Shown here: piece after piece, positions 5,699 through 45,423 of the stretch
Position numbering within the stretch: the first letter of the stretch is position 1
Layout: each line of letters opens with the position of its first letter
Assembly: GCA_003139415.1 (NCBI GenBank)
Contig: PLIR01000192.1
Coordinates: 3,787 to 49,529, forward strand
Source of the DNA: Myxococcales bacterium
Lineage (GTDB): Bacteria; Myxococcota_A; Polyangia; Polyangiales; Polyangiaceae
Direction of reading: 5' to 3'
Length of the DNA: 45,743 nucleotides
Notes under the pieces: model-generated
Seen by the model: the letters and a program-made list of their open reading frames with translations, nothing else
Databases searched by the model: none
Told to the model about the DNA's origin: nothing
Position numbers and translations under genes: made by a program

Positions 5699-5776
5699 GG
5701 TCAAGATGGACCGGTTAGCACGAGAGGGCCGGCCCGCCGAGGCCGCATTGGGCCCATGTGATACCGTCAATTGCGG

Positions 5777-8700
5777 ATGTTCAAGGTCGAGTGCGAGTCG
5801 TGCAAATCGCCGTTTCAGATCGATGAGCGGCGGGTACCGCCCGCGGGTCTGAAGATGCGATGCCCGAAGTGCGGGCACTCCTTCCTCGTCACCACGCCGG
5901 TCACCACGCCGGCGATAGATTTGCCCGCGGCGAAGCCCACGGCCGCCCCGGTCAAGCCGGCGTTCACTCCCGCGGCGGCGCCGCCAATCGCGCCGCCCGC
6001 GCCGGCCGCCGCGTCACCTGCCTCGCCCCAGCGCCCCAAGTCGCCGCTGAGGTCGACGATGGTGGGAGTCGGGGCGGATCTCGGGGTGAAGCAGCCGCTC
6101 GTGCCGCCGACGCTCCAGGCGAAGCCCCCCGTTTTACCAAGGCCGATCAACGTGCCCGCGCCCGCTGAGGTGCACAACGCCGCGACCATCCCGGCCAAAC
6201 CTCCGCCGTCGCCGATGGCTGCCTTGAAGAGGACCATGATGGGCGTGGCCCCGGCGCCCCCCACGGCGTCCGGCGGTGCGCCGGCGGTCCCTCCCGCCAC
6301 GCCGCCCATCGCGCCCCCGGCCGTGGCGCGCCCGGCCCCGCCTCTTCCTCCCATGCGGCCCGAGCTCCCCTCGGACTTTCCGGCGTCGCTGGGCGGTCTC
6401 GACGAACCCGACCTTCCGGTCGTTTCGCCGCCCGCAAAGAAGGCGCCGCCGCCGGCCGTACCGCGAGCGGGCGTCGCGCCCGCCGGGGCGTCCCCTGCCG
6501 CGCCACCGACGGTCTCGCGGGGCCCGCAGCCGCCCGCCAAACCGACGCCGTCGTCGTCGCCCGTCGACGAACTCGACTTCGACCTTCCGGTCGTCTCCGC
6601 CGACTTGCCCGCGACGCGGGGCGCGCCTCCCCCGAAACGTCCTTTGCCCGGCCGACCGATGGACGCGGACCTCCCGGTGGCCGCGGCGGCGAAGGCTCCT
6701 CCGGCGGCGCCGAAGCCATTCGAGCAGGACCTTCCGGTGGTCGCCGCAGGGCCGAAGGCCAAGCTCACCCAGCCTTTCGAGATGGACCTTCCCGTGGCCG
6801 CGGGGCGCGGCGCCAAAGACCTCGACGCCGACCTTCCCATCGTGGCGCCTTCGCTGCCCGATGTCGCGCACTCGCTGCCTGCCGTCGCGCACTCGCTGCC
6901 CGCCGTCGCCGTCGACCTCCCGACGGCCAAGCGCAGGGGGACCTTCGACGACTTGCCCATCGTGTCGGCCGTCGGCTTGCCCTCGCCCGCGCAGCTGCTC
7001 CCCGACGTCGCCGCGTCGCTGCCGATCGCGGGCGGTCCCGCTCTCCCCGCGGTCGCCCACAACAACCTGCCCGTTGCTGCCGGGGGCATGGCGTTCGGGG
7101 AGATCGACCTGCCGACGCCGAACGAATCCGTGCCGCCAAGCTCCCCCCGGCAGCCCTCCGGTCGCCCCCCCAGCGACGAGTTCGCGCTCTTCGGGGACAT
7201 GGACCTGCCGCGCGAGATACCCGCGGGCGTGCCGGGTGCGGGCAAGAGCCAGCCCCCCATCGACCCGGCCGCGGACTTCGGCGACCTGCAGCTCGACGGG
7301 AAGCGCCGGTCGATCCGGCCGCCGACGGGCCGCGCATCCATCGTGCCGTCCCCGGAGCCCACCGGTGGCGCGGAGGTCACGAGGGACGACGGCGGCATGA
7401 GCTTCGGCGAGGTCGAGCTCGGAGGCGGCCACCCGGAGAGCGCCCCGGAGGTGCCTATCGGCACCGAGGCCGCGATCGGCACCGAGGCCGCCATCGGCGC
7501 CGAAGCGCGGATCAGCAGTTCGCCACCCCGGGGGCCGAAGCTCGACGTCGTGATGCCCGTGGCGGTCAAAGGCAAAGAACCACCCAAAGAAGAGACGCCT
7601 CGGCCACGGCGGACACTCGCCATCGGGATCGCGGTCGCCGTGTTCGTCGTCGTCCTCTTGGGCGGCGCCGCGCTGCAGGTCACCCCGTACGGCGCCTTCG
7701 GCTACCTGGTCATCAGCGACATGACTCGGGCCGGCGAGTACGCCAAGGTGACGGCCCAGGCCATCGGCGACGCGCGTGCGACGATGGCCTCCGACACCTT
7801 CGAGAGCGCGAAGAAGGCCGTCGAGGCCGTCGCCGCGGCGCACGCGCGCTTTCCGCGGGCCAATTCGCTCACCGCGGTTGCGGCGTTCGTCGACTACCAG
7901 GCGAACGTCCGCTTCGGGGGCGACACGGCGCGGGGCGCGCGAGCCAAGCAGTTGCTGACGACGCTGCCATCCAACCAGGTCGTCCCCTACGCCGACGCGG
8001 CGGCGGGCGCCCAGACGGCCGAGAGCGGGGAGCTGGATCGCGCGGGCAAGGAGCTCGACGCGGCCGCGCGCAACCCGGCCGACGCCGCGCTTCAGGGCGA
8101 GATCGCGCTGCTGCGCGGCGAGGTGGCGCTTTCCGCGGGCGACGGCGGCGCTGCCCTCGCGGCTTTCAAGCGCGCCCTCGGCCTGGGCGACGACGCGCGC
8201 GCTCACTTTGGCCTCGCGCGAGCCTACGACCTGATGCACGACGCGTCGGCCACTCAGCGCGAGATCGCCGCCACCCTCGCCAAGTCTCCGCAGCACGTGG
8301 GCGCGCTGACGCTCCGCGCGCGCCCGAGGAGCGGGCAGGTGGATGCGGCCGCGGCGGTCGCGGACCTGGCCGTCGTATTGGACGGTCCGGCTCGCGCCAA
8401 GGCGTCCCCCACGGAGCTCTCCGCGGCCTACGCAGCCAGGGCGTGGGTCAGCCTCGACAAGGGGGCCGCGAGCGACGCGCGCGACGCGTTCACGCAGGCG
8501 GTCACGCTCGACGCCCGCAACTTCGACGCGTTGAACGGCCAAGGGCGACTGTTCCTGAACGAGGGGCGGTACACCGAGGCCCTCGCCCGGTTCGACGCGG
8601 CGCTGCTCATCGATCCGAACTCCCCCGAGACGATCGCCAACGACGCCGAAGCGAAGCTCGCTCTCGAGCGGCTGGCCGACGCCAAGCAGCAGCTCGTCGC

Positions 8701-10089: not shown

Positions 10090-10941
10090 TTAGCTCCTCG
10101 CGCGCGCCTCGAGGGCCGCCGCCATCTGCGCGAAAGACTCCACGTCGAGGGTCTCGCCGCGCGCGCGCAGGTCGACCCCGGCAGCGGCCGCCGCTTCTTC
10201 GAGCACGCCGGCGCCTGGCGCCAGCGACGCCCAGGCGTTTCGAAGCGTCTTGCGGCGCATCTCGAAGGCCCCGCGGACGAGGGCGCGGAAGGTCTCCGTC
10301 TCGAGTGCACGCGGCGGCCGGAGGGGCACGAACTCGACGACCGCGCTCGTCACCTCGGGCGCCGGGTGAAACGCGCCCGGCGGCGCCCGCAGCACGCGCC
10401 GCGTCGCGAACGCCGCGCGGACGAAGACCGTGAGCGCGCCCCACTCCTTGCCGCCCGGCGTGGCCGTCAGGCGCCGCGCGACCTCGTCTTGCACCATGAA
10501 CACCGCCCGGTCCACCGACGCCGCGTGCTCCACCGCCCGGCGCAGCAGCGCGCCAGTGATCGAGTAGGGGAGGTTGCCGCAAAGGACGCGAGGGCTTCCC
10601 TCCGTGGGCGGGCCGAGCAACGACGCTAGGTCGACTTGCTGGGCGTCGCCCTCGATGACCTCCGTGTCCGTCCCCGCCATCGCCTCCGCCAGGACCGGCA
10701 CGAGGTCGCGGTCGCGCTCGATCGCCACGACGTGCATCGCGCGCTGCACGAGCCGATGGGTGAGCGCCCCGGTCCCCGCGCCGATCTCCACGACCCGCGC
10801 CCGTCCGACCTCCGCGTCCGGGACGCACGCTCTCGCGATGGCGTCTGCGATGGACTCGGCGACGAGGAAGTTCTGCCCGAAGGTCTTTTTTGGCCGAAGG
10901 CCCGCGGCCCGCAGGAGGGAACGCGGATCGCGGTAGGTCAC
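10090..10941 (-). CDS. rsmA: 16S rRNA (adenine1518-N6/adenine1519-N6)-dimethyltransferase RsmA/KsgA
   Basis: Motifs seen are KKTFGQNFL, the SAM motif VVEIGAGTGALT, and the catalytic NLPY (CGNLPYSITG). The GTG start at 10941 overlaps the upstream gene's TGA (GTGA, 10938-10941). The track ORF extension to 11649 is an out-of-frame shadow of the DUF58 gene. Confidence 0.9.
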   Translation of the reverse strand: MTYRDPRSLLRAAGLRPKKTFGQNFLVAESIADAIARACVPDAEVGRARVVEIGAGTGALTHRLVQRAMHVVAIERDRDLVPVLAEAMAGTDTEVIEGDAQQVDLASLLGPPTEGSPRVLCGNLPYSITGALLRRAVEHAASVDRAVFMVQDEVARRLTATPGGKEWGALTVFVRAAFATRRVLRAPPGAFHPAPEVTSAVVEFVPLRPPRALETETFRALVRGAFEMRRKTLRNAWASLAPGAGVLEEAAAAAGVDLRARGETLDVESFAQMAAALEARARS

Positions 10942-12545
10942 CCGGTCGCCCCTTCGGCTGGTTCGCGGCCTGTCTCCTTGGCGGCCGCCGGAGCTCGCGG
11001 CGGCGCCACGACCTGCACGCCCAGCCGTCGCAGGAGCCGCTCGGCGCGCCACCGCGCCGCGGCTGCGCGCGCCCGTACGGCGTCGTCCACGGCGTCCGCG
11101 ACGGCGCTGCGCGGCGAGGGATCCGCCCCGACGGCAGAGTCGAACGCCGGCACGGTCCAGCGCACGCGGATCCGCGCCGCCCGAACGCGGGTCAGGGCCT
11201 TGGCCATCCCCTCGGCGCGCACGGGTGACGGAGCCCAGACGTGGATCACGCTGGCGCGCGGCTTCTCGGCGGCGAGCCGCTCGAGGGCGGCGGCCAGCGC
11301 CCTCTCGCTCGCCTCGCGCTCGCCGTCTGCCCTGGGCGGCGACTCGACGCCGAACGCCGCGAGGTAGTGCCGCAGGCTTTGCTCCCTCGGTGTCGGCGCG
11401 AAGGGGACTCGCGGCGAGAAGGGCGCGTGAACGCGAAGCTCGTCGGCCCGCCGCGCCAGGGCGTCGAGGTCGCCCTTTCGCACGTCGGCGAGCGCTCGCG
11501 GATCGAGCGGTCGTGCGTGCTCCGCCACGCGGCTCGCGACCATGGTCTCGTCGAGCTCCGAGCGGTCGGCGTCGACCACGCTCGACGCGCTCGCGAGGGC
11601 CTTGGCGATCGCCGCGCCGTGCGCGGCCCCCTCGCTCGGCGCAATCCACGACCGCACCCGCGAGGCCGTCACGACCAGCCCGACGCGCTCACCGCGCCGC
11701 AGATGACGCACGGCCAGGGCGCCCACTTCCTCGACCACGCCGTCGAGCGGAGCACGCCCGGGGGCGCCCGCCCAAAGCTCGACCGAGGCGTCGACGACGA
11801 GCCACACGATGTCTCGCCCTTCGCGCGCCATCTCCCGTACGAGCAGACGCCCGCGGCGCGCGCTCGCCTTCCACGCGATGCGCTTGAAGGCGTCGCCCGG
11901 GACGTGGTCGCGCAGTTCGAGCAGCTCGCCGCCATCGCCGGGAACGTTGAACGCCCGTCCCGACTCCGCCGCGCGCCGGGCGCGCCCTCCCCGTGGCGAC
12001 GAGAGCAGCGCGGCGAACGTCTGCGGCAGGACCTCGATCCCGTGCGGGTTCGCGAAGAGCAACGGGACCTCGTACAGCGCCTCGCCGCCGAGCGACGTCC
12101 CCCTCACCTCGAGGGCCAATCCGTGGACGCCCCAACGGCCCACCCGACGCGGCTGCACGGTCACGGCGATGCGCGCCCGCCCCCCCGGCGCGAGGTCGAC
12201 CGCTTTCGGCTCCACCGAGGCCTCGAGCAAGCTGGACACGATGGGTCGCAAGGCGACCGCGCGGACCGGCGCGCTGCCCCGGTTGCGGAGCTCGCCCTCG
12301 AGCACGACGGGGACGCCGAGCGCCACCGATTGCACCCGCGTCTTGCTCGTCCAGACCATCTCGAACCCCGCCGTCCGCAAGCGCGTCACGGCCAGCGTCG
12401 CCACGGCTCGGCCGATGGCGACCGCGAGCAGCATGGCGCCCCCGAACGCCGCGACCGGCGCGAGCCGCTCGGCGACGCCGACGGCCACGAGCCCGGCGCC
12501 CGCGACCGCGACGTGGAAGGTCGAGCGCGTCGGGTAGAGCTGCAC
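10938..12545 (-). CDS. DUF58 domain protein (MoxR-associated, VWA-like) with long C-terminal extension
   Basis: There are two N-terminal TM helices and a DUF58-type core (ELRDHVPGDAFKRIAWKASARRGRLLVRE...VWLVVDAS). The gene lies 3 nt downstream of the MoxR ATPase gene. It uses a GTG start. Confidence 0.75.
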   Translation of the reverse strand: MQLYPTRSTFHVAVAGAGLVAVGVAERLAPVAAFGGAMLLAVAIGRAVATLAVTRLRTAGFEMVWTSKTRVQSVALGVPVVLEGELRNRGSAPVRAVALRPIVSSLLEASVEPKAVDLAPGGRARIAVTVQPRRVGRWGVHGLALEVRGTSLGGEALYEVPLLFANPHGIEVLPQTFAALLSSPRGGRARRAAESGRAFNVPGDGGELLELRDHVPGDAFKRIAWKASARRGRLLVREMAREGRDIVWLVVDASVELWAGAPGRAPLDGVVEEVGALAVRHLRRGERVGLVVTASRVRSWIAPSEGAAHGAAIAKALASASSVVDADRSELDETMVASRVAEHARPLDPRALADVRKGDLDALARRADELRVHAPFSPRVPFAPTPREQSLRHYLAAFGVESPPRADGEREASERALAAALERLAAEKPRASVIHVWAPSPVRAEGMAKALTRVRAARIRVRWTVPAFDSAVGADPSPRSAVADAVDDAVRARAAAARWRAERLLRRLGVQVVAPPRAPAAAKETGREPAEGATG

Positions 12546-12548
12546 GTC

Positions 12549-13520
12549 TCAGACCGCCCGCATCCCCCGACGGTAGCTCACCTTCGACAGGGCCTCCTCG
12601 ACCAGGCGCTCGCGCGCGCCGGCCTCGCCTTCCGCGTCGGCCGTCAGGATGAGCCGGTGGGCGAGGACGCTCGGCGCGATGGCGCGCAAATCGTCGGGGG
12701 CGACGAACGGGCGGCCGCCGATCATCGCCCACGCCTTGGCCGCCTGAACGAGGCTGAGCGTGGCCCGGGGGCTCGCGCCCAGGGTCACGCGCTGGTGGCC
12801 GCGCGTGAAGGCGGAGATCGCGACGGCGTACTCGAGCAGGTCGTCCTCGACGTAGACGCGCGACGCGATCCCTTGCAGTTGCACCACGTCGCGCGCCGAC
12901 AGCACGGGCCGGGCCGTCGGCGGATCGGCCCCGTGGGCCTTGAGCATCTGCGCCTCCTCCCGCGCGTTCGGGTAGCCCATCGAGACGCGGACGAGGAAGC
13001 GATCGATCTGCGCCTCCGGCAGCGCGTAGGTGCCTTCGAGATCGATGGGGTTCTCCGTGGCGAGGACCAGGAACGGCGACGGCAGCTCGAACCGGTCGCC
13101 CTCGATCGTGACCTGCCGCTCTTGCATCGCCTCGAGCAGCGCGCTTTGCGTCTTGGCGGGCGCGCGGTTGATCTCGTCGGCGAGGACGACGTTCGCGAAG
13201 ATCGGCCCCGGGCGGAGCGCGAACGTCCCTTCGCGCGGCGACAGGACGTACGTCCCCGTGATGTCGGCGGGCAGCAGGTCGGGCGTGAACTGGATGCGAC
13301 GCGAGTTGCAGCCGAGCGTGGTCGCGAAGGCCTTGACGAGCGTCGTCTTGGCGATGCCGGGGACACCCTCGAGCAGCGCGTGCCCGCGCGCGAGCAGGGC
13401 CAGGAGCATCGTGTCGATGTGGCGGGTCGAGCCGATGAACACCCGCGCGACCTCGCGCCGAACGTCGTCGAGGCGCTCGCGTGCCGCGGCAATTTCGTTC
13501 GTGTTCGCGGCGGCGGTCAC
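12549..13520 (-). CDS. MoxR-family AAA+ ATPase
   Basis: Walker A is GVPGIAKTT. The MoxR hallmark RIQFTPDLLPADITG is present. Walker B/sensor is VLADEINRAPAKTQSALLEAMQE. The GTG start overlaps the upstream stop (GTGA at 13517-13520). Confidence 0.93.
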   Translation of the reverse strand: MTAAANTNEIAAARERLDDVRREVARVFIGSTRHIDTMLLALLARGHALLEGVPGIAKTTLVKAFATTLGCNSRRIQFTPDLLPADITGTYVLSPREGTFALRPGPIFANVVLADEINRAPAKTQSALLEAMQERQVTIEGDRFELPSPFLVLATENPIDLEGTYALPEAQIDRFLVRVSMGYPNAREEAQMLKAHGADPPTARPVLSARDVVQLQGIASRVYVEDDLLEYAVAISAFTRGHQRVTLGASPRATLSLVQAAKAWAMIGGRPFVAPDDLRAIAPSVLAHRLILTADAEGEAGARERLVEEALSKVSYRRGMRAV

Positions 13521-14995
13521 GGCTTGACGACTGTACCACGCCGCGCTGCGTCTACCGCCGCGAGCAGCCGCGAGACCTCCCCGGCGGCCGCGTTCACCTC
13601 CCGGTCACGGAGAGAGCTCCGCGCTTCGCCCCGGGCCGCCGCCGCCGGCTGCTCGACGCGGGCGAACTTGGCGAGCAGCGAGGCGAGGGCGTCGGCGTCG
13701 TCCTCGGCGAGGAGACCGGCTGCGCGGACCTTCGCGACGATTTGTTCGCGAGCCGGGGCGCGATCCAGGCCGAGGCGGACGGCCAGCTGCTCCTCGAGGG
13801 CGCTCTTCAGCTCCAGCATCGCCAGCACGCGCGATCCGCCCGGCGCGGCGAGCACGGCGGCATGTCCGGCGACGCCTCCCTGGGCCGCGACCGGCACCGC
13901 CCGCACGAACCTCGGCTCGAGGGGCTTGTGCATCCGGGCGCCTCGGAGCGCCGTCCACACGACCACGCCGAGGCCGGTGGCCGCCGCGGCCAGGTAGAGC
14001 ACGGGCGGCGGAGCTCCGTTCTGGCGCAGCTCCTCGACCCCTCCGGCGAGCGCGCGCCGCAGCGCAGCCGCTGCGCTGACGGCCGGCGAGACGTGGCCGA
14101 AGGTCCCTGTCGTGTCGAAGTCGTTCGTCAGCAGGTAGATCTTGCCGCCATGGCGCGCGGTAGGGGCGTCCTCGGTGGCGTACCGTACGAGCCCCGCCGC
14201 AAGCGCGCGGTTTCCCGGGAAGCGGAGCATCGCGTTGATGACGACGGACGCGTCCCCCACCGCCAGGAGCCGGCCGTGTCCGACGCTCCCGGCCAGCGCA
14301 AGGAGCACATCGGGCTCCTCGCTGCCGCGCACCACGAGCACGGGCGAGAGGCCCGAGTGCTCGAGACCGGTCGCGTGGTTGGTGACGACGCGCGTCACCG
14401 ATCGCACCACAGGGTGCTCGGCCGCGGGTTCCGCGATGGCGAGGGCGGGGTTTCCTCGCAGCATCTCCGCGGGGTGCACCGGCAGAGGCACCCTTCGGAT
14501 CCCGAATTGCCTGAGGAATCCGTCGCCCGATCCGTAGTCGTCGAGGACGACGACCCTCCCACCGGCCCGCATGAACGCCGACAGCTCTTCGGCATCGATG
14601 GCGCGGGTCGGGTGCACGATGAAGACGGCGTCGGTCGCTTCGAGTTGCCCAACGTCGAGCGTCGCGGTCGAAACGACACGGCCGCGGCCGACCTCGTGCT
14701 CGGCGATGTCCACAAACTGCGAGAGGCCCTCCCAGTCGATGCCGTGTGGGTCGAAGGCCGCCGCCCACGCGGCCGAGCAGACGAGCGTCACGCAAGCGGT
14801 GGCCAACGCCACAGCGGCAGCCGTTGCGAGCGTCCTGGAGCGGCGGTCGCCATCATCGCCCGCGCGGTCCCGATCGTCGCCCGCACGGTCCCGGATGGGG
14901 GTGTGGGGGAGCGGCCGCGCTCCCCCACTGCAGGGTCGGCGCCTTACATTCACCCTGACATAGAATGCTGTTGCTGAACGCCCTGCAGGCTGCAA
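13517..14995 (-). CDS. DUF4350-like exported protein (first gene of the MoxR operon); 5' end uncertain
   Basis: The position upstream of MoxR/DUF58 is typical for DUF4350 proteins. An N-terminal hydrophobic segment (ATAAAVALATACVTLVCSAAWAAA) and a second TM near residue 330 are present. The maximal ORF starts at a TTG at 14995, only 3 nt from the divergent ORF, and reads through a REP-like hairpin. An in-frame GTG at 14812 is a more plausible start. Confidence 0.6.
   Translation of the reverse strand: MQPAGRSATAFYVRVNVRRRPCSGGARPLPHTPIRDRAGDDRDRAGDDGDRRSRTLATAAAVALATACVTLVCSAAWAAAFDPHGIDWEGLSQFVDIAEHEVGRGRVVSTATLDVGQLEATDAVFIVHPTRAIDAEELSAFMRAGGRVVVLDDYGSGDGFLRQFGIRRVPLPVHPAEMLRGNPALAIAEPAAEHPVVRSVTRVVTNHATGLEHSGLSPVLVVRGSEEPDVLLALAGSVGHGRLLAVGDASVVINAMLRFPGNRALAAGLVRYATEDAPTARHGGKIYLLTNDFDTTGTFGHVSPAVSAAAALRRALAGGVEELRQNGAPPPVLYLAAAATGLGVVVWTALRGARMHKPLEPRFVRAVPVAAQGGVAGHAAVLAAPGGSRVLAMLELKSALEEQLAVRLGLDRAPAREQIVAKVRAAGLLAEDDADALASLLAKFARVEQPAAAARGEARSSLRDREVNAAAGEVSRLLAAVDAARRGTVVKP
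14904..14927. repeat. GC-rich REP-like hairpin (tGGGGGAGCG-gccg-CGCTCCCCCa), third copy of the 2.4-2.7 kb element core
   Basis: It has a 10-bp perfect stem and a 4-nt loop. The core is identical to the hairpin at 2656-2675. A 21-bp tandem duplication (14852-14872 / 14873-14893) lies just before it. Confidence 0.7.
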
Positions 14996-17449: not shown

Positions 17450-18115
17450 TCACACCTTCATCGTCAGTTCGACGTCGTCGGCGAACGGGACGGAGAGGTA
17501 TCCGGAGCCGGGGGCGCGGACCTGCGCGAGGTAGTCGGGGCAAGCGTCGGCGTTGTCGGCGACGATGAAGGACCCGGGCCGCAGGCGCGGGGCCACGAGG
17601 CCGAGGATTCGCGCGTAAAGCGGCTTGTGGCCGTCGAGGAGCACGCCATCGATCGTGGCCGGAAGGTCGCGCGCCAGCGTCTCGAGCGCGTCGCCCTCGC
17701 GGATGTCGACGAGGTCGGCGAGCCCGGCCCTCGTGAGGTTGTCGCGCGCGCGAGCGAGCTTCGATGGCTCGAACTCGGTGCCGATGAGAGTGCCGCCCCC
17801 GTTGTCGCGCAGCGCCGCCGCCAGATGCACCGCGGAGATGCCGAACGAGGTCCCGAACTCGACGATGGCGCGGGCACCGTTGGCGCGGGCCAGCATGTAG
17901 AGCAGCGCACCCGTCGCGGGCGAGACGGCCATGTGGACGTCTTTGACCATCGAGAAGAACCTTCTGTAGTCGGCGTTGGGGTCGCTCATGCGCCGGACGC
18001 GCTCTTCGCGCGACATCGGGCCGAGCATCTCGCCCATCTTCTTCGTGGTCTGGGCCGCATCGGCAAAGAGCTGCGCGAGCAGCGGGGCGACGGGCGGGGA
18101 GTTCAGGGTGTTCAT
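17450..18115 (-). CDS. Class I SAM-dependent O-methyltransferase (family 3, caffeoyl-CoA OMT-like)
   Basis: Its length is 221 aa. The SAM motif is IVEFGTSFGISAVHLA. It also carries LIGTEFEP, DGVLLDG and FIVADNA. It is divergent from the Rieske-P450 gene. Confidence 0.8.
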   Translation of the reverse strand: MNTLNSPPVAPLLAQLFADAAQTTKKMGEMLGPMSREERVRRMSDPNADYRRFFSMVKDVHMAVSPATGALLYMLARANGARAIVEFGTSFGISAVHLAAALRDNGGGTLIGTEFEPSKLARARDNLTRAGLADLVDIREGDALETLARDLPATIDGVLLDGHKPLYARILGLVAPRLRPGSFIVADNADACPDYLAQVRAPGSGYLSVPFADDVELTMKV

Positions 18116-18200
18116 GGTCTCTCGCTATCGCGCAACGCGGCTCCGGCGTCCAGCAGGCACTGAACATCGGCTTCCGGCCCCAGCGCTCGGAAATCTTGGT

Positions 18201-20036
18201 ATGGCCGGGTCCGGCGCCCGCGTTAGGCTTCGCCGCATGGCTGCGCGCAACGTCGAACTCCACGCCAAGCCACGCTCCGACGCCACGGCGCCGGCGTGGT
18301 CGCGTGTCTCTCGGATCAGCGATCTCCGCGGCGACGGCCCGCATCCCATCTCCGCCGGCGGCACGGATCTGGTGCTGTTGCGGACACGTTCGGGCGTTCG
18401 CGTCTACGAAGGGCGGTGCCCCCACCAGGGCGCCCTGCTCGGCGAAGGCGAGATGGATGGCGAGACCCTCGTCTGCCGAAACCACCGCTGGCGATTCGAC
18501 GGCGAGACCGGTCGCCGCATCGGCAAGGGCACCGAGTGCCTCCGCGCGTGCCCCGTCGTCCAAGAAGGCGCGGACGTCCTCGTGGATATCTCGGGCCTGG
18601 CGGCGGCCTCGACCCCGGCCGCGGCGCCGGCACGCGCCCTCGACGACCTCCCCGGCCCGCGGGCCATCCCGATCTTCGGCAACGCCTTGCAGGTCGACCC
18701 GGAGCGTCTCCACGTAACGCTGGAACAGTGGGCCGAAAAGTACGGGCCGCTGTACCTGGCGCGCGTCGGTTCGCGCAAGATGCTCGTCGTCTCCGACGCA
18801 GAGCTCGTCGAGCCGATGTACCGCGCGCGCCCCGACATGTACCGGCGCCCGTCGGAGGTCGAGCCGATCTTCGAGGAGCTGGGGGTCTCGGGGGTGTTCT
18901 CGGCCGAGGGCGACGCATGGCGCGCGCAGCGGAGGCTGGCGATGGAGGCACTCTCGCTGCGCCACCTCCGGGGCTTTTACCCCACGCTCGCGCACGTCGC
19001 GCAGCGCCTCGTGCGACGGTGGAACGACGCGGCGGATGCCGGCCGCGAGCTCGACGTGGCCGACGAGCTCAAACGCTTCACGGTCGACGTCACGACGCAG
19101 CTCGTCTTCGGCCACGATCTCAACACGCTCGAGAAGGGGGACGAGCACATCATCCAGCGGCACCTCGAGCACATCTTTCCCGCCTTCGCCCGCCGGCTCA
19201 ACGCCATCGTCCCGTACTGGCGCTACTTTCGATTGCCCGTCGATCGACGCGTCGATCGCGCCGTGCAGGCCGTGTACGAGTGGCTCACGCTGGTCATCAC
19301 GCAGGCGCGCGCAGGCCTCGCGGCGGACCCGGCCCGCGCGGAGAACCCCACGAACTTCATCGAGGCGATGCTGGTCGCGCGCGACGCCGAGGGCCGCCCG
19401 TTCTCCGACGAGGTCATCTTCGGCAACGGGCTGACGATGCTGCTCGCGGGCGAAGACACGACGGCCTACACGCTCGCGTGGGCGGTGCATCACCTGTGTG
19501 ACGTGCCGCAGGCCGCCGCAGCGCTCCGCGAGGAGGCCGACGCCATCTTCTCCGCGAGCGACGTGCCGGCCGACATCGAACAGGCGAACCGCCTCGCTTA
19601 CGCCGCCGCGGTCGCCAACGAATCGATGCGGCTGCGGCCTGTCGCGCCGGCTCCCTTCTTCGAGCCCAAGGTCGACGTGGTGGTCGGCGGCGTCGCGGTG
19701 CCGAAGGGCACGATGATCGTCTCTCTCGCCCGGCGCGCGACGCTCGATCCGGCCCGCTTCGACAAGCCGCAAGACTTCGCGCCGGAGCGCTGGATCGAGG
19801 CGGGCGCGAACGGCAAGGCGCACGACGCGTCCGTTCACACGCCGTTCGGCTCCGGGCCTCGAATCTGCCCCGGGCGCTCGCTCGCGATCCTCGAGATGCG
19901 CGTCGCGCTCGCGGCCATCTACAAGAACTTCGACGTGGAGCGCGTGGGCGCGAGCGCCGACGTGCGCGAGCGGCTCGCGTTCACGCTCGGTCCGCTGGGT
20001 CTGCGCGTCAAAGTACGACGCCGCGTCCCGTCGTGA
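18201..20036 (+). CDS. Natural fusion: N-terminal Rieske [2Fe-2S] domain + cytochrome P450
   Basis: The Rieske ligands are CPHQG (Cys at 18417) and CRNHRW (Cys at 18474). An Ala/Pro linker follows. P450 motifs are the I-helix AGEDTT, the ExxR motif ESMRLRP, PERW, and the heme loop FGSGPRICPG (Cys at 19866-19868). The start is ATG 18201 or 18237. Confidence 0.9.
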   Translation: MAGSGARVRLRRMAARNVELHAKPRSDATAPAWSRVSRISDLRGDGPHPISAGGTDLVLLRTRSGVRVYEGRCPHQGALLGEGEMDGETLVCRNHRWRFDGETGRRIGKGTECLRACPVVQEGADVLVDISGLAAASTPAAAPARALDDLPGPRAIPIFGNALQVDPERLHVTLEQWAEKYGPLYLARVGSRKMLVVSDAELVEPMYRARPDMYRRPSEVEPIFEELGVSGVFSAEGDAWRAQRRLAMEALSLRHLRGFYPTLAHVAQRLVRRWNDAADAGRELDVADELKRFTVDVTTQLVFGHDLNTLEKGDEHIIQRHLEHIFPAFARRLNAIVPYWRYFRLPVDRRVDRAVQAVYEWLTLVITQARAGLAADPARAENPTNFIEAMLVARDAEGRPFSDEVIFGNGLTMLLAGEDTTAYTLAWAVHHLCDVPQAAAALREEADAIFSASDVPADIEQANRLAYAAAVANESMRLRPVAPAPFFEPKVDVVVGGVAVPKGTMIVSLARRATLDPARFDKPQDFAPERWIEAGANGKAHDASVHTPFGSGPRICPGRSLAILEMRVALAAIYKNFDVERVGASADVRERLAFTLGPLGLRVKVRRRVPS

Positions 20037-20154: not shown

Positions 20155-21399
20155 ATGGAGCGCGTCGTCATCACTGGGATCGGGCTGGTCACTCCCGTCG
20201 GGGTAGGTACGCGTGAACCGTGGCGCGCGCTCCTCGGTGGCGAGAGCGGCATCGGCCCCATCAGCCGCTTCGATACCAAGGGCTTCCGGGCGCGCATCGC
20301 CGGCGAAGTGAAGGGCTGGGAGCCCACGCGCTGGGTCGAAAAGAAGCGCCTCAAGGAGATGGATCGGTTCACCGAGTTCGCCCTCGGCGCAGCGGCCCTC
20401 GCCGTGGCCGATGCCGGCCTCGAGCTGACCGAGGCCGAGCGCGCCCGCGCCGGGTGCTTCATCGGCGTCGGGCTTGGCGGCTTGCCAGCGCTCGAGCGGA
20501 CCAAGGAGACGCTCACCGCCAAGGGCCCAGAGAAGGTGAGCCCGTACACCATCCCGGCCATCATCTCGAACCTCGCGGCCGGCCAGGTCTCGATGGCCCA
20601 TCACCTCGAGGGGCCCAGCTACTGCATCACGAGCGCCTGCTCGAGCGGGGCGCACGCCGTGGGCGAGGCCGCGCAATGGATCCGCCTCGGCAAGGCCGAC
20701 GTCATGGTGGCCGGGGGCGCCGAGGCCACCGTGACGCCCGTCGGAATCGCCGGCTTCGAAGCCATGTACGCTCTCAGCCGCCGCAACGACGACCCGCAGC
20801 GAGCGAGCCGTCCCTTCGACCGCGATCGCGACGGCTTCGTCTGCGGAGAGGGCTCCGGGATCCTCGTGCTCGAGTCGCTGTCGCGCGCCTCCAGGCGAGG
20901 GGCCCGGATCTACGCCGAGGTCTCCGGCTACGGCGCGTCGAGCGACGCCCACCACATCACGCAGCCGGCCCCAGAACACCGCGGAGCCCAGCGAGCGATG
21001 CGCATGGCGCTCGAAGACGCGAAGATCGCCCCTGACGCCGTCGACTACGTCAACGCCCACGGGACCTCCACGCCCGTGGGCGACGTCGAGGAGTCGCGGG
21101 CCCTCGCCGCCGTCTTCGGCGCCCACGCGACCGACGGCAAGCTCTGGGTGAGCTCCACCAAGTCGATGATGGGGCATCTCCTCGGTGCAGCCGGCGCGGT
21201 CGAGACGGCCATCTGCGCCCTGGCGATCGCCGACGGCTGCGTCCCGCCGACCATCAACCTCGTCCACCCCGACCCGGAGTGCTCGCTCGATTACGTGGCG
21301 AACACGGCGCGCCGCCGGACCATCCGTCACGCGATGAACAACTCCTTCGGGTTCGGGGGTACGAACTGCGCGCTCGTCCTTTCGGGCCTCGGGACTTAA
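20155..21399 (+). CDS. fabF: Beta-ketoacyl-ACP synthase II (FabF/KAS II-type ketosynthase)
   Basis: The N-terminus is [16 protein letters not shown]. The active-site Cys lies in [11 protein letters not shown]. The His residues lie in [11 protein letters not shown] and [12 protein letters not shown]. Confidence 0.92.
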
Positions 21400-21412: not shown

Positions 21413-22423
21413 ATGCCATCCAGCATGCCCTCGGCGCGCATTCTCGGCACGGGACGCTTCCTGCCGCCCGACGTGCGGACGAACCGCGACATCGAGCGCA
21501 TGGTCGAGACGTCCGACACCTGGATCGTCGAGCGCACCGGCATCCGAGAGCGGCGCATCGCGCCCGACGGAATGACGACGAGCGACATGGCGGCCGCCGG
21601 CGCCCGCGAGGCGCTCGACATGGCGGGCATACGCGCCGCGGACCTGGATCTCATCGTCCTGGCCACGGTGACGCCGGACATGCCGATGCCCTCGGGGGCC
21701 GCGATCGTCCAGGGCAAGCTCGGCGCCGGTCACTGCCCGGCGATCGACGTCGGCGCGGCCTGCGCGGGCTTCGTCTTCGCGCTCTCCGTGGGCGAACAGT
21801 TCATCCGGACGGGCAAGTATCGGACGGTGCTGGTCGTCGGCGCCGACACGCTTACGAAGTTCATCGACTGGACCGATCGCAAGACGTGCGTGCTCTTCGG
21901 CGACGGCGCCGGGGCCGTCGTGCTGGGGGCCGAGGCCGTCGCGAGCGATGGCGCGGTGACGCAGGGGATCCTGGCGACGTCGCTCTCCACCGACGGGACC
22001 CTCGCCCCTGCCCTCTACATCCCGGGCGGCGGCAGCGCACGGCCCCCTTCGGCGGCCACGGTCGACGAGCGACTGCACTTCATCCGCATGAACGGTCAGG
22101 AGATCTTCAAGCACGCGGTGAAGAACCTCGTGGCCGCGAGCCGGGCTGCACTGGGCGAAGCGGGGATGACCATGGCCTCGGTCGACTGGGTCTGCGCGCA
22201 CCAGGCGAACAAAAGGATCCTCGACCAGGTCGCGCTTCGCCTCGAGACGGCTCCGGACCGGATGCTGTGCAACATCGACCGGGTCGGCAATACGTCGAGC
22301 GCGTCCATCCCGATCCTGCTCGACGAGAGTGTTCGCGCGGGCACCGTCCGGACGGGCGACGTCGTGGTGATGAGCGCGCTCGGGGCCGGCATCTCGTGGG
22401 GCGGCGCCGTCGTGCGCATGTGA
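21413..22423 (+). CDS. fabH: Beta-ketoacyl-ACP synthase III (FabH/KAS III)
   Basis: The Cys-His-Asn triad sits in DVGAACAGFVFAL, CAHQANKRIL and RVGNTSSASIP. The gene starts 13 nt after fabF. Confidence 0.92.
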   Translation: MPSSMPSARILGTGRFLPPDVRTNRDIERMVETSDTWIVERTGIRERRIAPDGMTTSDMAAAGAREALDMAGIRAADLDLIVLATVTPDMPMPSGAAIVQGKLGAGHCPAIDVGAACAGFVFALSVGEQFIRTGKYRTVLVVGADTLTKFIDWTDRKTCVLFGDGAGAVVLGAEAVASDGAVTQGILATSLSTDGTLAPALYIPGGGSARPPSAATVDERLHFIRMNGQEIFKHAVKNLVAASRAALGEAGMTMASVDWVCAHQANKRILDQVALRLETAPDRMLCNIDRVGNTSSASIPILLDESVRAGTVRTGDVVVMSALGAGISWGGAVVRM

Positions 22424-22430
22424 GGGGACG

Positions 22431-23987
22431 ATGGAGGCGAGAGCAAAGCGAGATGATCTCATGAGCCGCGCGACCGACACTTTTCGATCGGAGACGGGCG
22501 CAAGGCCGATCAACACGGCCATCTTGCCCCGGCGGCTCGACGCCGTCGCGGAGAGCTCGCGGCGAGAGATCGCGCCCCCGGCCCGCCGGCTGGCGGCGCT
22601 GTTCGATGGCGGCAGCTACGAAGAGCTGGACGCGCTCGCCCATCACCGGGCCAGCCAGTGGGGCATGGCGGGCAAGCGCTTCGACGGCGACGGCGTCAGC
22701 GTGGCCACGGGTCGGGTGCACGGTCGCGCCGTGGTGGCCTTCGCGCAGGACCGCCGGTTCATGGGCGGCTCGCTCGGCGAGACGCACGCGGCCAAGATCT
22801 GCAAGGGGATGGACCTGGCCGAACGGCTGGGAGCGCCCCTGGTAGGCCTGCTCGATTCGGGCGGCGCGCGCATCCAAGAGGGCGCCGCGGCTCTCGCGGG
22901 CTACGGCGAGATCTTTCGTCGCAACGTGCGCCTCTCGGGACGCGTGCCTCAGATCTCGGTCGTCCTGGGCCCGTGCGCGGGCGGCGCGGTCTACTCGCCG
23001 GCCATCACCGACTTCATCGTCCTGTCCCGGCCCGACGCCCTGATGTTCGTGACCGGCCCGAAGGTCGTCAAACAGGTGATGTTCGAGGACGTCGACAGCG
23101 AAGGCCTCGGCGGCGCCAAGGTGCACGCCACGATGAGCGGCGTCGCCCATCTGGTCGAACCCGACGAAGCCTCGGCCATCGCCCGGGCACGAACGCTCCT
23201 CGCGTTCTTGCAGATCCCACGTGCGCCCTCGGCCGAGCCTGCGAACGACGCGCCCCTCGATACGCTGGTCCCGAAGAACTTCCGGCACCCCTACGACGTC
23301 CGGCGGGTGATCGATGCGCTCGCCGATCGGGGCTCGATCGTGGAGATCCAGCCCGACTACGCCAAGAACATCGTCGTCGCCCTCGCCCGCATCGACGGGC
23401 GCGCCGTCGGGATCGTGGCCAACCAGCCCAAAGAGCGCGCCGGGGTGCTCGACATCGATGCGTCGCGCAAGGCGGCGCGGTTCGTACGGACGATGAGCGC
23501 CTTCGGTATCCCGATCGTCTCGCTAGTGGACGTCCCCGGTTTCATGCCCGGCTCCCGGCAGGAGCACGGCGGCGTCATCGTGCACGGCGCCAAGCTGCTC
23601 TACGCATACTGCGAGGCGCGCGTGCCGCGCATCGCGCTCGTGACCCGCAAGGCTTTCGGCGGGGCGTACATCGTCATGTCGTCGAAGCACCTCGGCGCGG
23701 ACGTGAACCTCGCCTGGCCCGACGCCCAGATCTCGGTGATGGGGGCGGAAGGCGCCGTAGAGATTCTCCACGGCAAGGAGCTCAAGGCCGCGCCAGATCC
23801 GAGGGCGCGGTTCGACGAGCTCTGCGCGCGCTACCGGGAAGAGTACATGTCCGTCCGGGTCGCGGCCGAGCGCGGCTGGATTGACGAGGTTATCGACCCC
23901 CGTGACAGTCGGCGCAAAATCGCCCACTACCTAACCCTCTTCGACGCCGAGGGCCTCCGCGGAACCCACGGCAACATCCCCCTCTGA
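22431..23987 (+). CDS. Acyl-CoA carboxylase carboxyltransferase beta subunit (PccB/AccD5-like)
   Basis: Motifs seen are GRAVVAFAQDRRFMGGSLGE, DSGGARIQEG, IVANQP...GVLDIDASRKAARFVR and AFGGAYIVM. The gene starts 7 nt after fabH and a GAGGGG Shine-Dalgarno sequence lies upstream. No biotin carboxylase or BCCP gene is in the window. Confidence 0.88.
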   Translation: MEARAKRDDLMSRATDTFRSETGARPINTAILPRRLDAVAESSRREIAPPARRLAALFDGGSYEELDALAHHRASQWGMAGKRFDGDGVSVATGRVHGRAVVAFAQDRRFMGGSLGETHAAKICKGMDLAERLGAPLVGLLDSGGARIQEGAAALAGYGEIFRRNVRLSGRVPQISVVLGPCAGGAVYSPAITDFIVLSRPDALMFVTGPKVVKQVMFEDVDSEGLGGAKVHATMSGVAHLVEPDEASAIARARTLLAFLQIPRAPSAEPANDAPLDTLVPKNFRHPYDVRRVIDALADRGSIVEIQPDYAKNIVVALARIDGRAVGIVANQPKERAGVLDIDASRKAARFVRTMSAFGIPIVSLVDVPGFMPGSRQEHGGVIVHGAKLLYAYCEARVPRIALVTRKAFGGAYIVMSSKHLGADVNLAWPDAQISVMGAEGAVEILHGKELKAAPDPRARFDELCARYREEYMSVRVAAERGWIDEVIDPRDSRRKIAHYLTLFDAEGLRGTHGNIPL

Positions 23988-24013: not shown

Positions 24014-25054
24014 CTAAGGCCGGTTGCCGCGCCGGTGCTCGCTCGGGGGCCGTCCCGTCCAGCGGCGGAACGCTCGCGTGAAGCTCGCGGCCCCGGAGAA
24101 GCCGAGGAGGTAGGCGATGTCCGTGATCGCGTGGCGCTCCTCGTTCAAGTACCCGAGCGCCAGTTCGTGCCGAGTGTCGTCGACGACCTTCGCGTAAGTC
24201 GTCGACTCGGCCGCCAGCCGACGCTGCAACGCCCGCGTGCTGGTCCCGAGGGCGCGGGCAATCGCGAGCTGGGACGGCGCACCGCTCGGCAGCCGGTTGG
24301 TGAGCACGACGCGGATGCAGTCGACGATGCGCGATCGGTCCCAGCGCTCGATGGCCTGGGCCGCCACGAGGTCGTTGACGCGCGCGAGCTCGGGGTTGGC
24401 GCCCGGGATGCGCCGATCGCACACTCGCCGCTCGACCGTGAGGGCGTTGATCGGAGCGTCGAACGTGATGGGCGCACGAAAGCACCGGTTGAAGGGCGAC
24501 GGATCGCGCGGCGACGGGCGGCGGAACTCGACCAGCAGGGGGGAGAACCGCCTGTCGGTGAGCGACCGGCAGAGGCGCACGGCGACCGCGAGCACCGCGT
24601 CGAGTGCCTCGGGCGCGACATGGTCTTCGCCCGTCACCGACACGCGGCACGTCTCACCGCGATCCTCGAACCGGATGGTCGCCCCGTTCGAGACGAGGCG
24701 GTAGTACCGGACGATCCGATCGAAGGCCTCGCGCAGGCTGCCGCTCGCCGTCAGCGAAAGGCCGAGCGCGTGAAACGTCGTCGGCGACGTGTGGCGGGCG
24801 ACTTCGACGCCGAAGCACGGGTCGGCCGTCGCCGCGACCGCGAGCTCCCACAGGCGCGTCTCGCCGCGAACGGGGTACCGTGCCTCGGGGTCGTTGAGCG
24901 CCCCGAAGTCGAGACCGGCCTGCGCGAACAGCGCTGGGGCGCTGACCCCGCGCGACTCGAGCGCCCGGGCGATCGCAAGGCCCCAGCTCGTGAGCGACGT
25001 CGGGTCCCGCGTCGGCGGAGTCGGTTCGAGCGCGAAGGAGGGTGCGGTCGACAT
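24014..25054 (-). CDS. AraC-family transcriptional regulator (AraC-type ligand-binding N-domain + C-terminal double HTH)
   Basis: The C-terminus reads LAIARALGTSTRALQRRLAAESTTYAKVVDDTRHELALGYL...ITDIAYLLGFSGAASFTRAFRRWTGRPP. The ATG is at 25054. Confidence 0.88.
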   Translation of the reverse strand: MSTAPSFALEPTPPTRDPTSLTSWGLAIARALESRGVSAPALFAQAGLDFGALNDPEARYPVRGETRLWELAVAATADPCFGVEVARHTSPTTFHALGLSLTASGSLREAFDRIVRYYRLVSNGATIRFEDRGETCRVSVTGEDHVAPEALDAVLAVAVRLCRSLTDRRFSPLLVEFRRPSPRDPSPFNRCFRAPITFDAPINALTVERRVCDRRIPGANPELARVNDLVAAQAIERWDRSRIVDCIRVVLTNRLPSGAPSQLAIARALGTSTRALQRRLAAESTTYAKVVDDTRHELALGYLNEERHAITDIAYLLGFSGAASFTRAFRRWTGRPPSEHRRGNRP

Positions 25055-25260
25055 GGCAACGGCGGGGACCAAGCTCAGTGTAGCCGCTGTTGGCGCGAAT
25101 TCCGTAGCGGAGGTCCGGCCGGGCCGCCGGGCCGACGGGTGCGTCGCGCCGCGCCCGCTGTCACGCGCGGTCCGAAGGAGCGCCGACGGAGAAGCGATTG
25201 GCGCCGCGGGGTAAGTCGCAACGGGGACCCGTGGATTATATCGCCTGCGTGAGGTTCAGC

Positions 25261-25518
25261 ATGGCCAAGGACATCCCGAGCGAAGTGCGTCGAATCATCA
25301 AAGAGCAACTCGACGTCGACGAAGCGGCAATCAAACCCGAGTCGAGCTTCATCGACGACCTCGGCGCCGACTCCCTCGGCCTCGTCGAGCTCGTGCTGGC
25401 GCTCGAGGGCGCCTTCGGTATCGACATCCCGGACACGGAGACCGAGAAGATTCGTACGGTCAAGGACGCCATCCAGTACATCGAGCAGCACGTGCAGGCC
25501 GAAGCGCCAGCAGCCTGA
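25261..25518 (+). CDS. Acyl carrier protein (stand-alone, 85 aa)
   Basis: The phosphopantetheine attachment motif is [19 protein letters not shown] sequence lies 7 nt upstream of the ATG. The gene is divergent from the AraC gene. Confidence 0.9.
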
Positions 25519-25653
25519 ACTCGAAGCCAGGGGTATCCGAGCCAGCAGCTGGGCTCAACGGCCTGATTACCCCGGTTGGCCCAAGGCCTTCCCATCAAAG
25601 CGCTTCGTTTGTCAGCGCTGCTCGCGGCCGCTCGGGGTAGATCTCCCGACGTC

Positions 25654-43592: not shown

Positions 43593-44053
43593 CATTGTAT
43601 GTTGCTGCGCTTCTCATCGGCGTGATTGCCGGGCTTCGGACGATGACCGCGCTGGCGGCGGTCAGCTGGGCGGCTCGCCTCGGCGCCCTCGGGGTCGGCG
43701 GAACCTGGCTGGCATTCCTGGGCTACAAGTACACGCCCTGGATCCTCACGGCGGCTGCGCTGGCAGAGCTCGTGACCGACCAATTGCCCGCGACGCCGAG
43801 CCGCACGGTGCCCGTCCAATTTGGCGCCCGCATCCTGACTGGAGCCCTCTCCGGCGCGGCTGTCGGCACGACTGCCGGGTCGTGGCCCATCGGGGCGGCG
43901 GTCGGCGCCGTCGGCGCGATCATGGGCACGCTCGGTGGGGCTGCGCTCAGGAGCCGTGGCGCCTCGGCGTTTCACAAGGACCGGCCCGCCGCGCTGCTCG
44001 AGGACGTCGTCGCGATCGGCGGTGCGTCTGCGATCGTGAGCCTCCTCGGATGA
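43589..44053 (+). CDS. DUF4126-like small integral membrane protein
   Basis: It is 154 aa with 4 hydrophobic Gly/Ala-rich helices. ATGA overlaps are present at both ends. Confidence 0.65.
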   Translation: MTLYVAALLIGVIAGLRTMTALAAVSWAARLGALGVGGTWLAFLGYKYTPWILTAAALAELVTDQLPATPSRTVPVQFGARILTGALSGAAVGTTAGSWPIGAAVGAVGAIMGTLGGAALRSRGASAFHKDRPAALLEDVVAIGGASAIVSLLG

Positions 44054-45423
44054 AGCGGTTCGACGCGATCATCCTCGGCGGGGGGCAGGCCGGCCCGCCC
44101 CTCGCGGGACGCCTCGCCGCCGCGGGCATGACGGTCGCGATCGTCGAGCGAAAGCTCTTCGGCGGGACCTGCGTGAATACGGGCTGCACGCCCACCAAGA
44201 CGCTGGTCGCAAGCGCGCGGGCTGCGTACATCGCACGGCGGGCTGCCGATTTCGGCGTGCTCGTCCCCGGTCCGGTCGGCGTCGACCTGGCACGTGCTCG
44301 GGCGAGGGCGATTGCCGTCTCGACGGACTCGCGTCGGGGGATCGAGTCCTGGCTCGAGGGCATGGATCGCTGTTCGGTGTTCGAGGGTCACGCGACATTC
44401 GAGGCCCGCGATACGGTCCGCGTGGGCGATCAGCTTCTGGTCGCCCCGCGCATCTTCATCAACGTCGGGGGTCGAGCGCGTATCCCGCGGATGCCCGGCA
44501 TCGACCGTGTCTCATACCTCACGAACTCGTCGATCCTCGCGCTCGAGACGCTGCCACGTCACCTCGTCATCGTCGGGGGGAGCTACATCGGCCTCGAGTT
44601 CGGCCAGATGTATCGGCGGTTCGGCAGCGAGGTCACGGTCATCGAGATGGGACCGCGTCTCATCGGTCGTGAGGACGAAGACGTGTCCGAGGCGGTCCAG
44701 GGCATCCTCGAGCGTGAGGGCATCAAGGTCCGCCTGAGTGCAGAGTGCGTTTCGCTTGCGCCCGACGGCTCGGGTGTGACCGCGCATCTCGAATGCGAGT
44801 CCGACGACCGCGCCGTGACCGGATCCCACCTCCTGATGGCTGTCGGTAGGCGACCGAACACGGATGATCTCGGCCTGGAGAAGGCGGGCGTCGCGGTCGA
44901 CGCGCATGGGTATGTCGTCGTCGACGATACCCTCCGCACGAACGTGAATGGGATTTGGGCCCTTGGCGATTGCAATGGCCGGGGCGCTTTCACCCACACC
45001 GCTTACAACGACTTCGAGATCGTCGCGGCGAACTTGCTCGACAATGACCCTCGGAAGGTCAGCGATCGCATCGGCGCATACGCGCTTTACATCGACCCGC
45101 CGCTCGGACGTGCGGGCCTCACCGAAGCCGCCGCGCGCAAGACTGGCCAGCCCCTGCTCGTCGGCAAACGTCCCATGACTCATGTGGGGCGAGCCGTCGA
45201 GAAGGGTGAGACACAAGGGTTCATGAAGACGATCGTCGACGCCAAGACCAAGAAAATCCTTGGCGCCACCATCCTCGGAACGGGGGGCGACGAGGCGATC
45301 CACGGGATCTTGTTCGCGATGTACGCAGGCGCGACCTCGACCACGATAACGCGTAGCGTCGGGATCCACCCGACCGTCTCCGAGCTCGTTCCGACGATGT
45401 TCAGCGAACTGAAGCCAATCTAG
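44050..45423 (+). CDS. FAD-dependent pyridine nucleotide-disulfide oxidoreductase (class I; MerA/Lpd-like, no MerA metal-binding extras)
   Basis: The FAD motif is ILGGGQAGP. The redox-active disulfide is GGTCVNTGCTPTK. The NAD(P) motif is VIVGGSYIGLEFG. The dimerisation-domain motif is HPTVSE. Confidence 0.88.
   Translation: MKRFDAIILGGGQAGPPLAGRLAAAGMTVAIVERKLFGGTCVNTGCTPTKTLVASARAAYIARRAADFGVLVPGPVGVDLARARARAIAVSTDSRRGIESWLEGMDRCSVFEGHATFEARDTVRVGDQLLVAPRIFINVGGRARIPRMPGIDRVSYLTNSSILALETLPRHLVIVGGSYIGLEFGQMYRRFGSEVTVIEMGPRLIGREDEDVSEAVQGILEREGIKVRLSAECVSLAPDGSGVTAHLECESDDRAVTGSHLLMAVGRRPNTDDLGLEKAGVAVDAHGYVVVDDTLRTNVNGIWALGDCNGRGAFTHTAYNDFEIVAANLLDNDPRKVSDRIGAYALYIDPPLGRAGLTEAAARKTGQPLLVGKRPMTHVGRAVEKGETQGFMKTIVDAKTKKILGATILGTGGDEAIHGILFAMYAGATSTTITRSVGIHPTVSELVPTMFSELKPI

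Follow-up and report, generated by a model that had tools for sequence, protein, structure and literature searches.

A stretch of 45,743 nucleotides from a Myxococcales bacterium (contig PLIR01000192.1; hereafter the window, meaning the whole stretch) carries at 18237-20036 on the + strand a complete gene, 599 amino acids (aa) plus stop, in which a Rieske-type ferredoxin domain is joined to the N-terminus of a cytochrome P450. The gene is best described as encoding a widespread, conserved, orphan Rieske-ferredoxin::P450 fusion that still requires a reductase; it is neither a self-sufficient P450 nor a fatty-acid-operon enzyme, and does not constitute categorically new biology. We consider it probable (roughly 0.65) that the protein is a two-domain monooxygenase in which an unlinked reductase feeds the tethered Rieske ferredoxin, which in turn reduces the P450 haem.

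The fusion gene, its domains and their distribution

The window sequence contains an uninterrupted open reading frame (ORF) at 17976-20036 (+ strand, as for all parts of the gene below) that encodes the entire fusion. Both domains are recognized by Pfam in the same polypeptide, PF00355 (Rieske) with E 9.1e-15 and 54.8 bits against a cutoff of 20.3, and PF00067 (p450) with E 1.1e-83 and 282 bits against a cutoff of 22.8, covering profile positions 2-460 of 462; matches this strong do not arise by chance. This bears out a first-pass annotation of the DNA, which had read a Rieske domain and a P450 in one ORF from the letters alone and had proposed confirmation by Pfam; every motif that it named was found again, at the positions it gave or implied, when the sequence was read. 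It had placed the start at 18201, but the cluster representative P0001 is 599 aa long, covering 98% of the query started there, and the N-termini of homologues begin MA(A/T/V)(R/K), aligning at MAARNVE in the window protein. Based on this length and these N-termini, the ATG at 18237 is most likely the start codon.

The Rieske domain spans 18291-18599 (residues 19-121), as delimited by PF00355, by the match to T4moC (toluene-4-monooxygenase) and by an AlphaFold2 (AF2) model compared using Foldseek. Its ligand boxes, C61-P-H63 (CPH, 18417-18425) and C80-R-N-H83 (CRNH, 18474-18485), are separated by 16 residues, in line with the expected CxH-(15-17 residues)-CxxH spacing, and C61, H63, C80 and H83 are invariant in 36 homologues of 56-83% identity, the set to which all residue conservation given here refers. 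A further Cys pair, C101-x3-C105 (18537-18551), lies outside the cluster ligands and is likewise conserved; C101, which is invariant, corresponds to Cys85 of T4moC in the alignment, and conservation of C105 is at least 90%. When the N-terminal 135 residues were compared with PDB sequences, T4moC was the best match (E 1.1e-14), followed by the Rieske domain of KshA, the ferredoxin of naphthalene dioxygenase (NDO) and BphF. The AF2 model of residues 19-121 has a predicted local distance difference test (pLDDT) score of 94.9 and superimposes on T4moC (4p1b_H) with template modelling (TM) scores of 0.93 (TMq) and 0.87 (TMt) and a root-mean-square deviation of 1.3 Å. Further structural matches were, in order, the ferredoxins of NDO, 3-nitrotoluene dioxygenase and carbazole dioxygenase, BphF and TodB, all of them free carriers of about 100-110 residues. 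The boxes read CPHQGALL...CRNHRWRF in the fusion and CPHQEILL...CRAHLWTF in T4moC, and they lack the two further Cys residues seen in the high-potential bc1/b6f type (CTHLGC...CPCHGS), so that by sequence they carry the low-potential signature. Judged by profile, fold model and ligand boxes, the N-terminal module is a complete, ferredoxin-sized Rieske domain of the soluble carrier type, and the fusion protein is predicted to bind a Rieske cluster.

An Ala/Pro-rich linker (AAASTPAAAPARA, about 18600-18638) connects the two domains. It is a variable region, differing among the 36 homologues in both sequence and length, and pLDDT falls below 50 at residues 123-127 in the full-length AF2 model. 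The P450 domain (18639-20033), E-class with a BM3-like fold, starts at an LPGP motif. It contains the I-helix oxygen-activation motif AGEDTT (A404-T409, 19446-19463), of which G405, E406, D407, T408 and T409 are invariant; the K-helix ExxR motif ESMR (E462-R465, 19620-19631), also invariant; the PERW meander motif (P516-W519, 19782-19793), with P516, R518 and W519 invariant; and the haem-binding loop FGSGPRICPG (19845-19874), in which F537, G538, G540, P541, R542, the axial ligand C544 (19866-19868), P545 and G546 are invariant. The nearest fold is that of the BM3 haem domain (Foldseek, TMt 0.88), and the PDB sequence matches are to CYP97, CYP102, CYP3A and CYP170A1 at about E 1e-36. All NCBIfam matches of the fusion protein fell far below their cutoffs, and neither the PDB sequence nor the NCBIfam comparisons yielded a characterized close relative of the P450 domain. 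To judge by its motifs, the domain is a complete, O2-activating P450 of an uncharacterized CYP family, and it would be expected to bind haem.

The Rieske domain, linker and P450 account for all 599 residues. Pfam and NCBIfam scans detected only PF00355 and PF00067 in the fusion protein and no domain binding flavin adenine dinucleotide (FAD), flavin mononucleotide (FMN) or NAD(P)H. Because no flavin or NAD(P)H domain is present, the protein is not self-sufficient and needs a separate reductase, and the comparison with self-sufficient P450s drawn in the first-pass annotation is therefore misleading.

The fusion is common. In an exhaustive search over 1.84 billion representatives clustered at 50% identity, the Rieske domain was present on 38 of the best 150 representatives, which were the ones analysed; the identity of these fused proteins falls as low as 32%, low-GC lineages are among them, and almost all keep CxH...CxxH, the exceptions being one variant with the second Cys changed to Gly and one corrupted entry. 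Of the 120 best protein clusters, 119 contain both domains. When one genome per species was scanned, relatives turned up in 431 species; the alignments of the best 80 all start within query residues 1-61, at or before C61 (77/80 by residue 29), and thus, beginning no later than the first ligand box, span both domains. These 80 species belong to Myxococcota, Gemmatimonadota, Acidobacteriota, Alphaproteobacteria and Armatimonadota. Carriers in the Myxococcota include Polyangiales, Labilithrix, Nannocystaceae, Kofleriaceae, Haliangium and the cultured Paraliomyxa miuraensis SMH-27-4 (orthologue at L069:10001-11722); those in the Alphaproteobacteria are Methylocella, Methylocapsa, Methylocystis and Roseiarcus. 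Automatic annotation at the Joint Genome Institute labels such proteins 'cytochrome P450/nitrite reductase/ring-hydroxylating ferredoxin subunit'. The architecture is thus not rare but common in metagenomes and metagenome-assembled genomes of at least five phyla, and the conservation pattern indicates that neither domain has decayed and that strong purifying selection acts on both across phyla.

The fusion is also genuine. The P0001 cluster comprises seven member sequences on five contigs from three sources, and P0001 differs from the window protein in a single residue (Q/E). Together with the fused state of 119/120 clusters and a GC content at third codon positions (GC3) of 0.82-0.98 in each 50-codon block across the Rieske/P450 junction, the independent contigs exclude a sequencing or assembly artefact. 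That neighbouring genes were joined by such an error, or that the contig is chimeric, has a negligible probability and is already effectively refuted. Long-read assemblies do show frameshift errors at such loci, giving apparently split genes; however, these errors act in the opposite direction by breaking a fused gene apart. Moreover, the fused ORF recurs in all 80 best species genomes as well as in the independent P0001 assemblies, and the linker stays in frame while varying in length.

Such errors account for the candidates for a natural split pair, i.e., a free Rieske gene beside an unfused P450. All five (L087:5441-7326, L088:4800-6604, L089:4800-6815, L090:4983-6763 and L091:3874-5652) were rejected, since each proved to be the fused gene with a frameshift or a wrongly placed start; two of them had looked like P450-only entries, and three come from long-read metagenome assemblies. 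Counts of domain architectures from such assemblies will consequently underestimate how frequent the fusion is. Every close stand-alone Rieske homologue examined is one half of a gene split by a frameshift, with the same P450 immediately downstream, and on this basis the Rieske domain appears to be dedicated to this P450. In a crude neighbour-joining tree built from the P450 domains of the query and 136 representatives (137 in all), fused and unfused members were interleaved, which we do not take as evidence of repeated fusion. One member of the same P450 family, P0192 (640 aa), carries a different, non-Rieske N-terminal extension of about 160 residues, and the family may have gained other N-terminal partners.

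Electron route and rival roles of the Rieske domain

In the scheme that we favor, NAD(P)H would reduce a flavoprotein reductase whose gene lies at an unlinked site in the genome, and this reductase would pass electrons to the Rieske cluster. The cluster would then deliver single electrons to the P450 haem, either within one chain or between the chains of a dimer. Oxygen would be activated via the conserved acid-alcohol pair of the AGEDTT motif, leading to hydroxylation of a probably lipophilic substrate, and the whole would operate as a two-component system of reductase and fused ferredoxin-P450. The direction and route of the electrons, the reductase and the substrate are those that we infer. 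Rieske ferredoxins are one-electron shuttles that connect a flavoprotein reductase with a terminal oxygenase, and a lasting fusion of a carrier with a redox enzyme is a classic signature of functional partnership; the persistence of the fusion across five phyla therefore argues for a functional partnership between Rieske domain and P450. Oxygenase-type Rieske ferredoxins have potentials of about -150 to -175 mV, close to that of the substrate-bound P450 haem, and because these potentials lie close together the reduction of the haem by the Rieske domain would be feasible, i.e., plausible but not generous. The first-pass annotation had offered three roles for the Rieske module, and among them a built-in electron relay is the best supported, given the four ligands and the electron-carrier type of the domain.

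Several observations weigh against this reading. No reductase was enriched or linked among 126 immediate neighbours in 69 loci in a Pfam census, and no ferredoxin reductase is encoded within the 45.7-kb window, which extends to relatives the earlier remark that the operon contains no reductase gene; since none is linked in either data set, the first step, from reductase to Rieske cluster, is one that we infer entirely. We know of no P450 that uses a Rieske carrier, and the literature searched contained neither such a P450 nor an experimental study of a Rieske-P450 fusion. The predicted TM score (pTM) of 0.79 for the full-length AF2 model can be explained by the P450 domain alone and is uninformative on domain docking. 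Within the wider P450 family, 112 of the best 150 representatives lack the Rieske domain and have normal N-termini at LPGP, and fused proteins are the nearest relatives of one unfused lineage (P0123/P0271). P0271 is the one truly unfused close relative whose locus (L086) was looked up, and no trace of a Rieske domain was found nearby. This lineage and its locus indicate that the domain is dispensable and can be lost in some lineages. Lastly, the potential of the class of His-ligated clusters is quoted as +100 to +400 mV (PMC6237146); if the Rieske domain were high-potential, it could not reduce the haem, and in view of the quoted range a Rieske donor might surprise specialists.

The unfused relatives are also an argument for a different role, in which the Rieske domain is a sensor or regulator that gates or tunes the P450 in response to redox state, O2, nitric oxide or iron, while a free ferredoxin or flavodoxin of the ordinary kind supplies the haem with electrons. 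The many related P450s without the domain must use partners in trans, the unfused P0123/P0271 lineage is most closely related to fused proteins, and no dedicated reductase is linked to the fusion gene. Nevertheless, we regard this role as unlikely. The closest relatives of the domain in both sequence and structure are dedicated electron carriers rather than ligand-less NirD-like modules, the four cluster ligands are all invariant, Pfam detects no output or regulatory domain in the fusion protein, and there are well-known cases in which a carrier fused to a P450 serves as its redox partner.

A slightly less likely role resembles that of cytochrome b5: the Rieske domain, too high in potential to pass the first electron to ferric haem, would give the second electron to the oxy-ferrous complex, or act as an effector, with the first electron coming from another partner. 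P450s of this structural type work with cytochrome P450 reductase (CPR) and b5 in eukaryotes, and Rieske centres are generally higher in potential than the Cys4 ferredoxins that normally serve P450s (PMC6237146). Against it, the ligand boxes match those of low-potential oxygenase ferredoxins and lack the extra disulfide Cys pair, no gene for a second partner is linked, and the explanation is less parsimonious. By far the least probable of the three is that the Rieske domain forms part of a second, Rieske-oxygenase-like active site in the same protein, akin to the second oxygenase-type cluster put forward in the earlier annotation. Weak similarity to the Rieske domains of KshA, SxtT and SdmA in the NCBIfam and PDB comparisons speaks for it, but matches to Rieske oxygenases in the NCBIfam, PDB sequence and Foldseek comparisons extend over the Rieske fold only, and neither Pfam nor NCBIfam scans detected a mononuclear-iron (2-His-1-carboxylate) catalytic domain in the fusion protein. 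The whole domain superimposes on free ferredoxins of about 100-110 residues and equals a free Rieske ferredoxin in both size and fold. A second oxygenase site is already contradicted by the domain content. The scheme in which an unlinked reductase feeds the tethered Rieske ferredoxin and the ferredoxin reduces the haem remains the reading that we prefer.

Genomic context

In the window the fusion gene is followed by a ketoacyl-acyl carrier protein synthase (KAS) I/II gene (20155-21399), KAS III/FabH (21413-22423), an acyl-CoA carboxyltransferase (22431-23987), a divergent AraC regulator (24014-25072, - strand) and a small acyl carrier protein (ACP; 25198-25518), which together look like a compact fatty-acid or polyketide-type set. 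Upstream, a class I S-adenosylmethionine-dependent O-methyltransferase (Methyltransf_24/Methyltransf_3; 17450-18115, - strand) is divergently oriented, 121 bp from the likely start of the fusion gene. The first-pass annotation had accordingly assigned the gene to an operon and suggested fatty acyl substrates. However, the neighbours differ in each relative at 83%, 68%, 67%, 66% and 60% identity, so that already the closest of these has another context. When the ORFs of 83 loci were clustered all against all, nothing emerged beyond shadow ORFs and lineage-specific synteny, and in the Pfam census no family accounted for more than eight of the 126 neighbours, the most frequent being Ser/Thr kinases. 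Ser/Thr kinases are abundant in myxobacteria. Methyltransferases of other families flank the fusion gene at one locus (L003) and lie near it at another (L002), and no methyltransferase family recurs in the census. An operon with the O-methyltransferase, KAS II, KAS III, carboxyltransferase and ACP genes was rejected on these grounds, and the suggestion of a fatty-acyl substrate, which rested on neighbours that are not conserved, has no comparative support. As the neighbours are not conserved and no partner family recurs, the gene is an orphan, most likely transcribed alone.

The only flavoprotein encoded in the window (43882-45423; Pyr_redox_2 and Pyr_redox_dim), located 24 kb away, was considered as the reductase and rejected for its disulfide-reductase architecture. 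Elsewhere in the window, a MoxR-like ATPase module (10938-14995, - strand) has a MoxR-type AAA+ ATPase (12549-13520) between a DUF58 protein (10938-12545) and a DUF4350 protein (13517-14995). A hybrid histidine kinase (25576-28569, + strand) with CHASE3, two GAF, HisKA, HATPase and receiver domains is followed by a small hemerythrin-domain protein (28858-29451, + strand), and the two could form a signalling pair that senses O2 or iron. A TetR-family regulator (- strand) is divergent from a bacterial Coq4-family protein at 31485-32939; the Coq4 family functions in ubiquinone biosynthesis and is known mainly from eukaryotes. A 1036-aa UvrA-like ABC ATPase with UvrA interaction and DNA-binding domains (2768-5878, - strand) may be a UvrA paralogue.

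Relation to known P450 redox systems

Fusions of P450s with redox partners are well studied and are workhorses of biocatalysis; the recognized partners are CPR, reductases of the PFOR type, flavodoxin and all-Cys ferredoxins. A Rieske module at the N-terminus had been regarded in the first-pass annotation as outside the characterized fusion classes, and a full-text search of some 8.3 million articles and preprints found no description of a Rieske-P450 fusion, although subscription-only papers lay outside its scope and a prior mention is possible. The related question of whether the architecture is common and already characterized thus receives a divided answer, as it is common in databases but without a description in the literature searched. 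For StiL, from the stigmatellin cluster, the published description goes no further than a P450. We lean, by a modest margin of confidence, towards the view that a low-potential ferredoxin of the Rieske type, fused N-terminally, acts as the direct haem donor, which would represent a new P450 redox class and the first Rieske centre to serve a P450.

A natural Rieske-ferredoxin partner would add a new class to the known P450 partners and would raise the thermodynamic question of whether a His-ligated cluster near -150 mV can drive both P450 reductions. A further attraction would be a compact fusion for which a generic reductase is enough. If the reading is true, maintenance of an orphan gene over at least five phyla would point to a conserved physiological role. 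That the gene is kept on its own in myxobacteria, Gemmatimonadota, Acidobacteriota and methanotroph-related Alphaproteobacteria is a hint that its carriers have a substrate in common. The cultured host Paraliomyxa miuraensis SMH-27-4 and the large conserved family make experiments feasible.

Among known systems, the Rieske domain is most similar to T4moC (PDB 1VM9, 1SJG, 4P1B), with which it shares domain size, fold and the ligand boxes CPHQ...CRxHxWxF; BphF, the NDO ferredoxin, CarAc and TodB belong to the same group. Proteins of the T4moC type work at low potential in bacterial multicomponent oxygenases, where they are dedicated to shuttling single electrons from a flavoprotein reductase to the terminal oxygenase. 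They occur as free proteins, act on diiron or Rieske non-haem-iron oxygenases and share an operon with their reductase, whereas the ferredoxin described here is tethered to a haem-thiolate P450 and has no linked reductase. Rieske ferredoxins are usually recognized genomically by being encoded together with their cognate reductase and terminal oxygenase; this arrangement is absent here, and the fused P450 takes the place of the terminal oxygenase.

The closest parallels in organization are P450 fusions in which the reductase is separate. The ferredoxin of CYP51fx from Methylococcus capsulatus is of the all-Cys 3Fe-4S type. As in the present fusion, a linker connects an Fe-S carrier with the P450, and the NAD(P)H reductase acts in trans; however, the CYP51fx ferredoxin domain is C-terminal (PMC7947880) and the enzyme is a sterol 14alpha-demethylase whose substrate is known, whereas the fusion in the window has an N-terminal His/Cys Rieske carrier and a P450 that is nearest to CYP97, CYP102 and CYP3A and not to CYP51.

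XplA of Rhodococcus, an N-terminal flavodoxin fused to a P450, requires the separate reductase XplB. It resembles the window protein in having a one-domain redox partner at the N-terminus of the P450 and its reductase on another chain, but its partner is an FMN flavodoxin and xplB adjoins xplA, in contrast to the Fe-S partner and missing adjacent reductase of the Rieske fusion. The likeness to CYP102 (BM3) lies in the P450 fold, and CYP116B, fused to a PFOR-type reductase with FMN and a plant-type 2Fe-2S cluster, also puts a [2Fe-2S] centre beside the haem. Both CYP102, which is fused to CPR, and CYP116B carry a C-terminal NAD(P)H flavin reductase in the same chain, whereas the fusion in the window combines a Rieske cluster and an N-terminal partner with a chain free of flavin and NAD(P)H domains.

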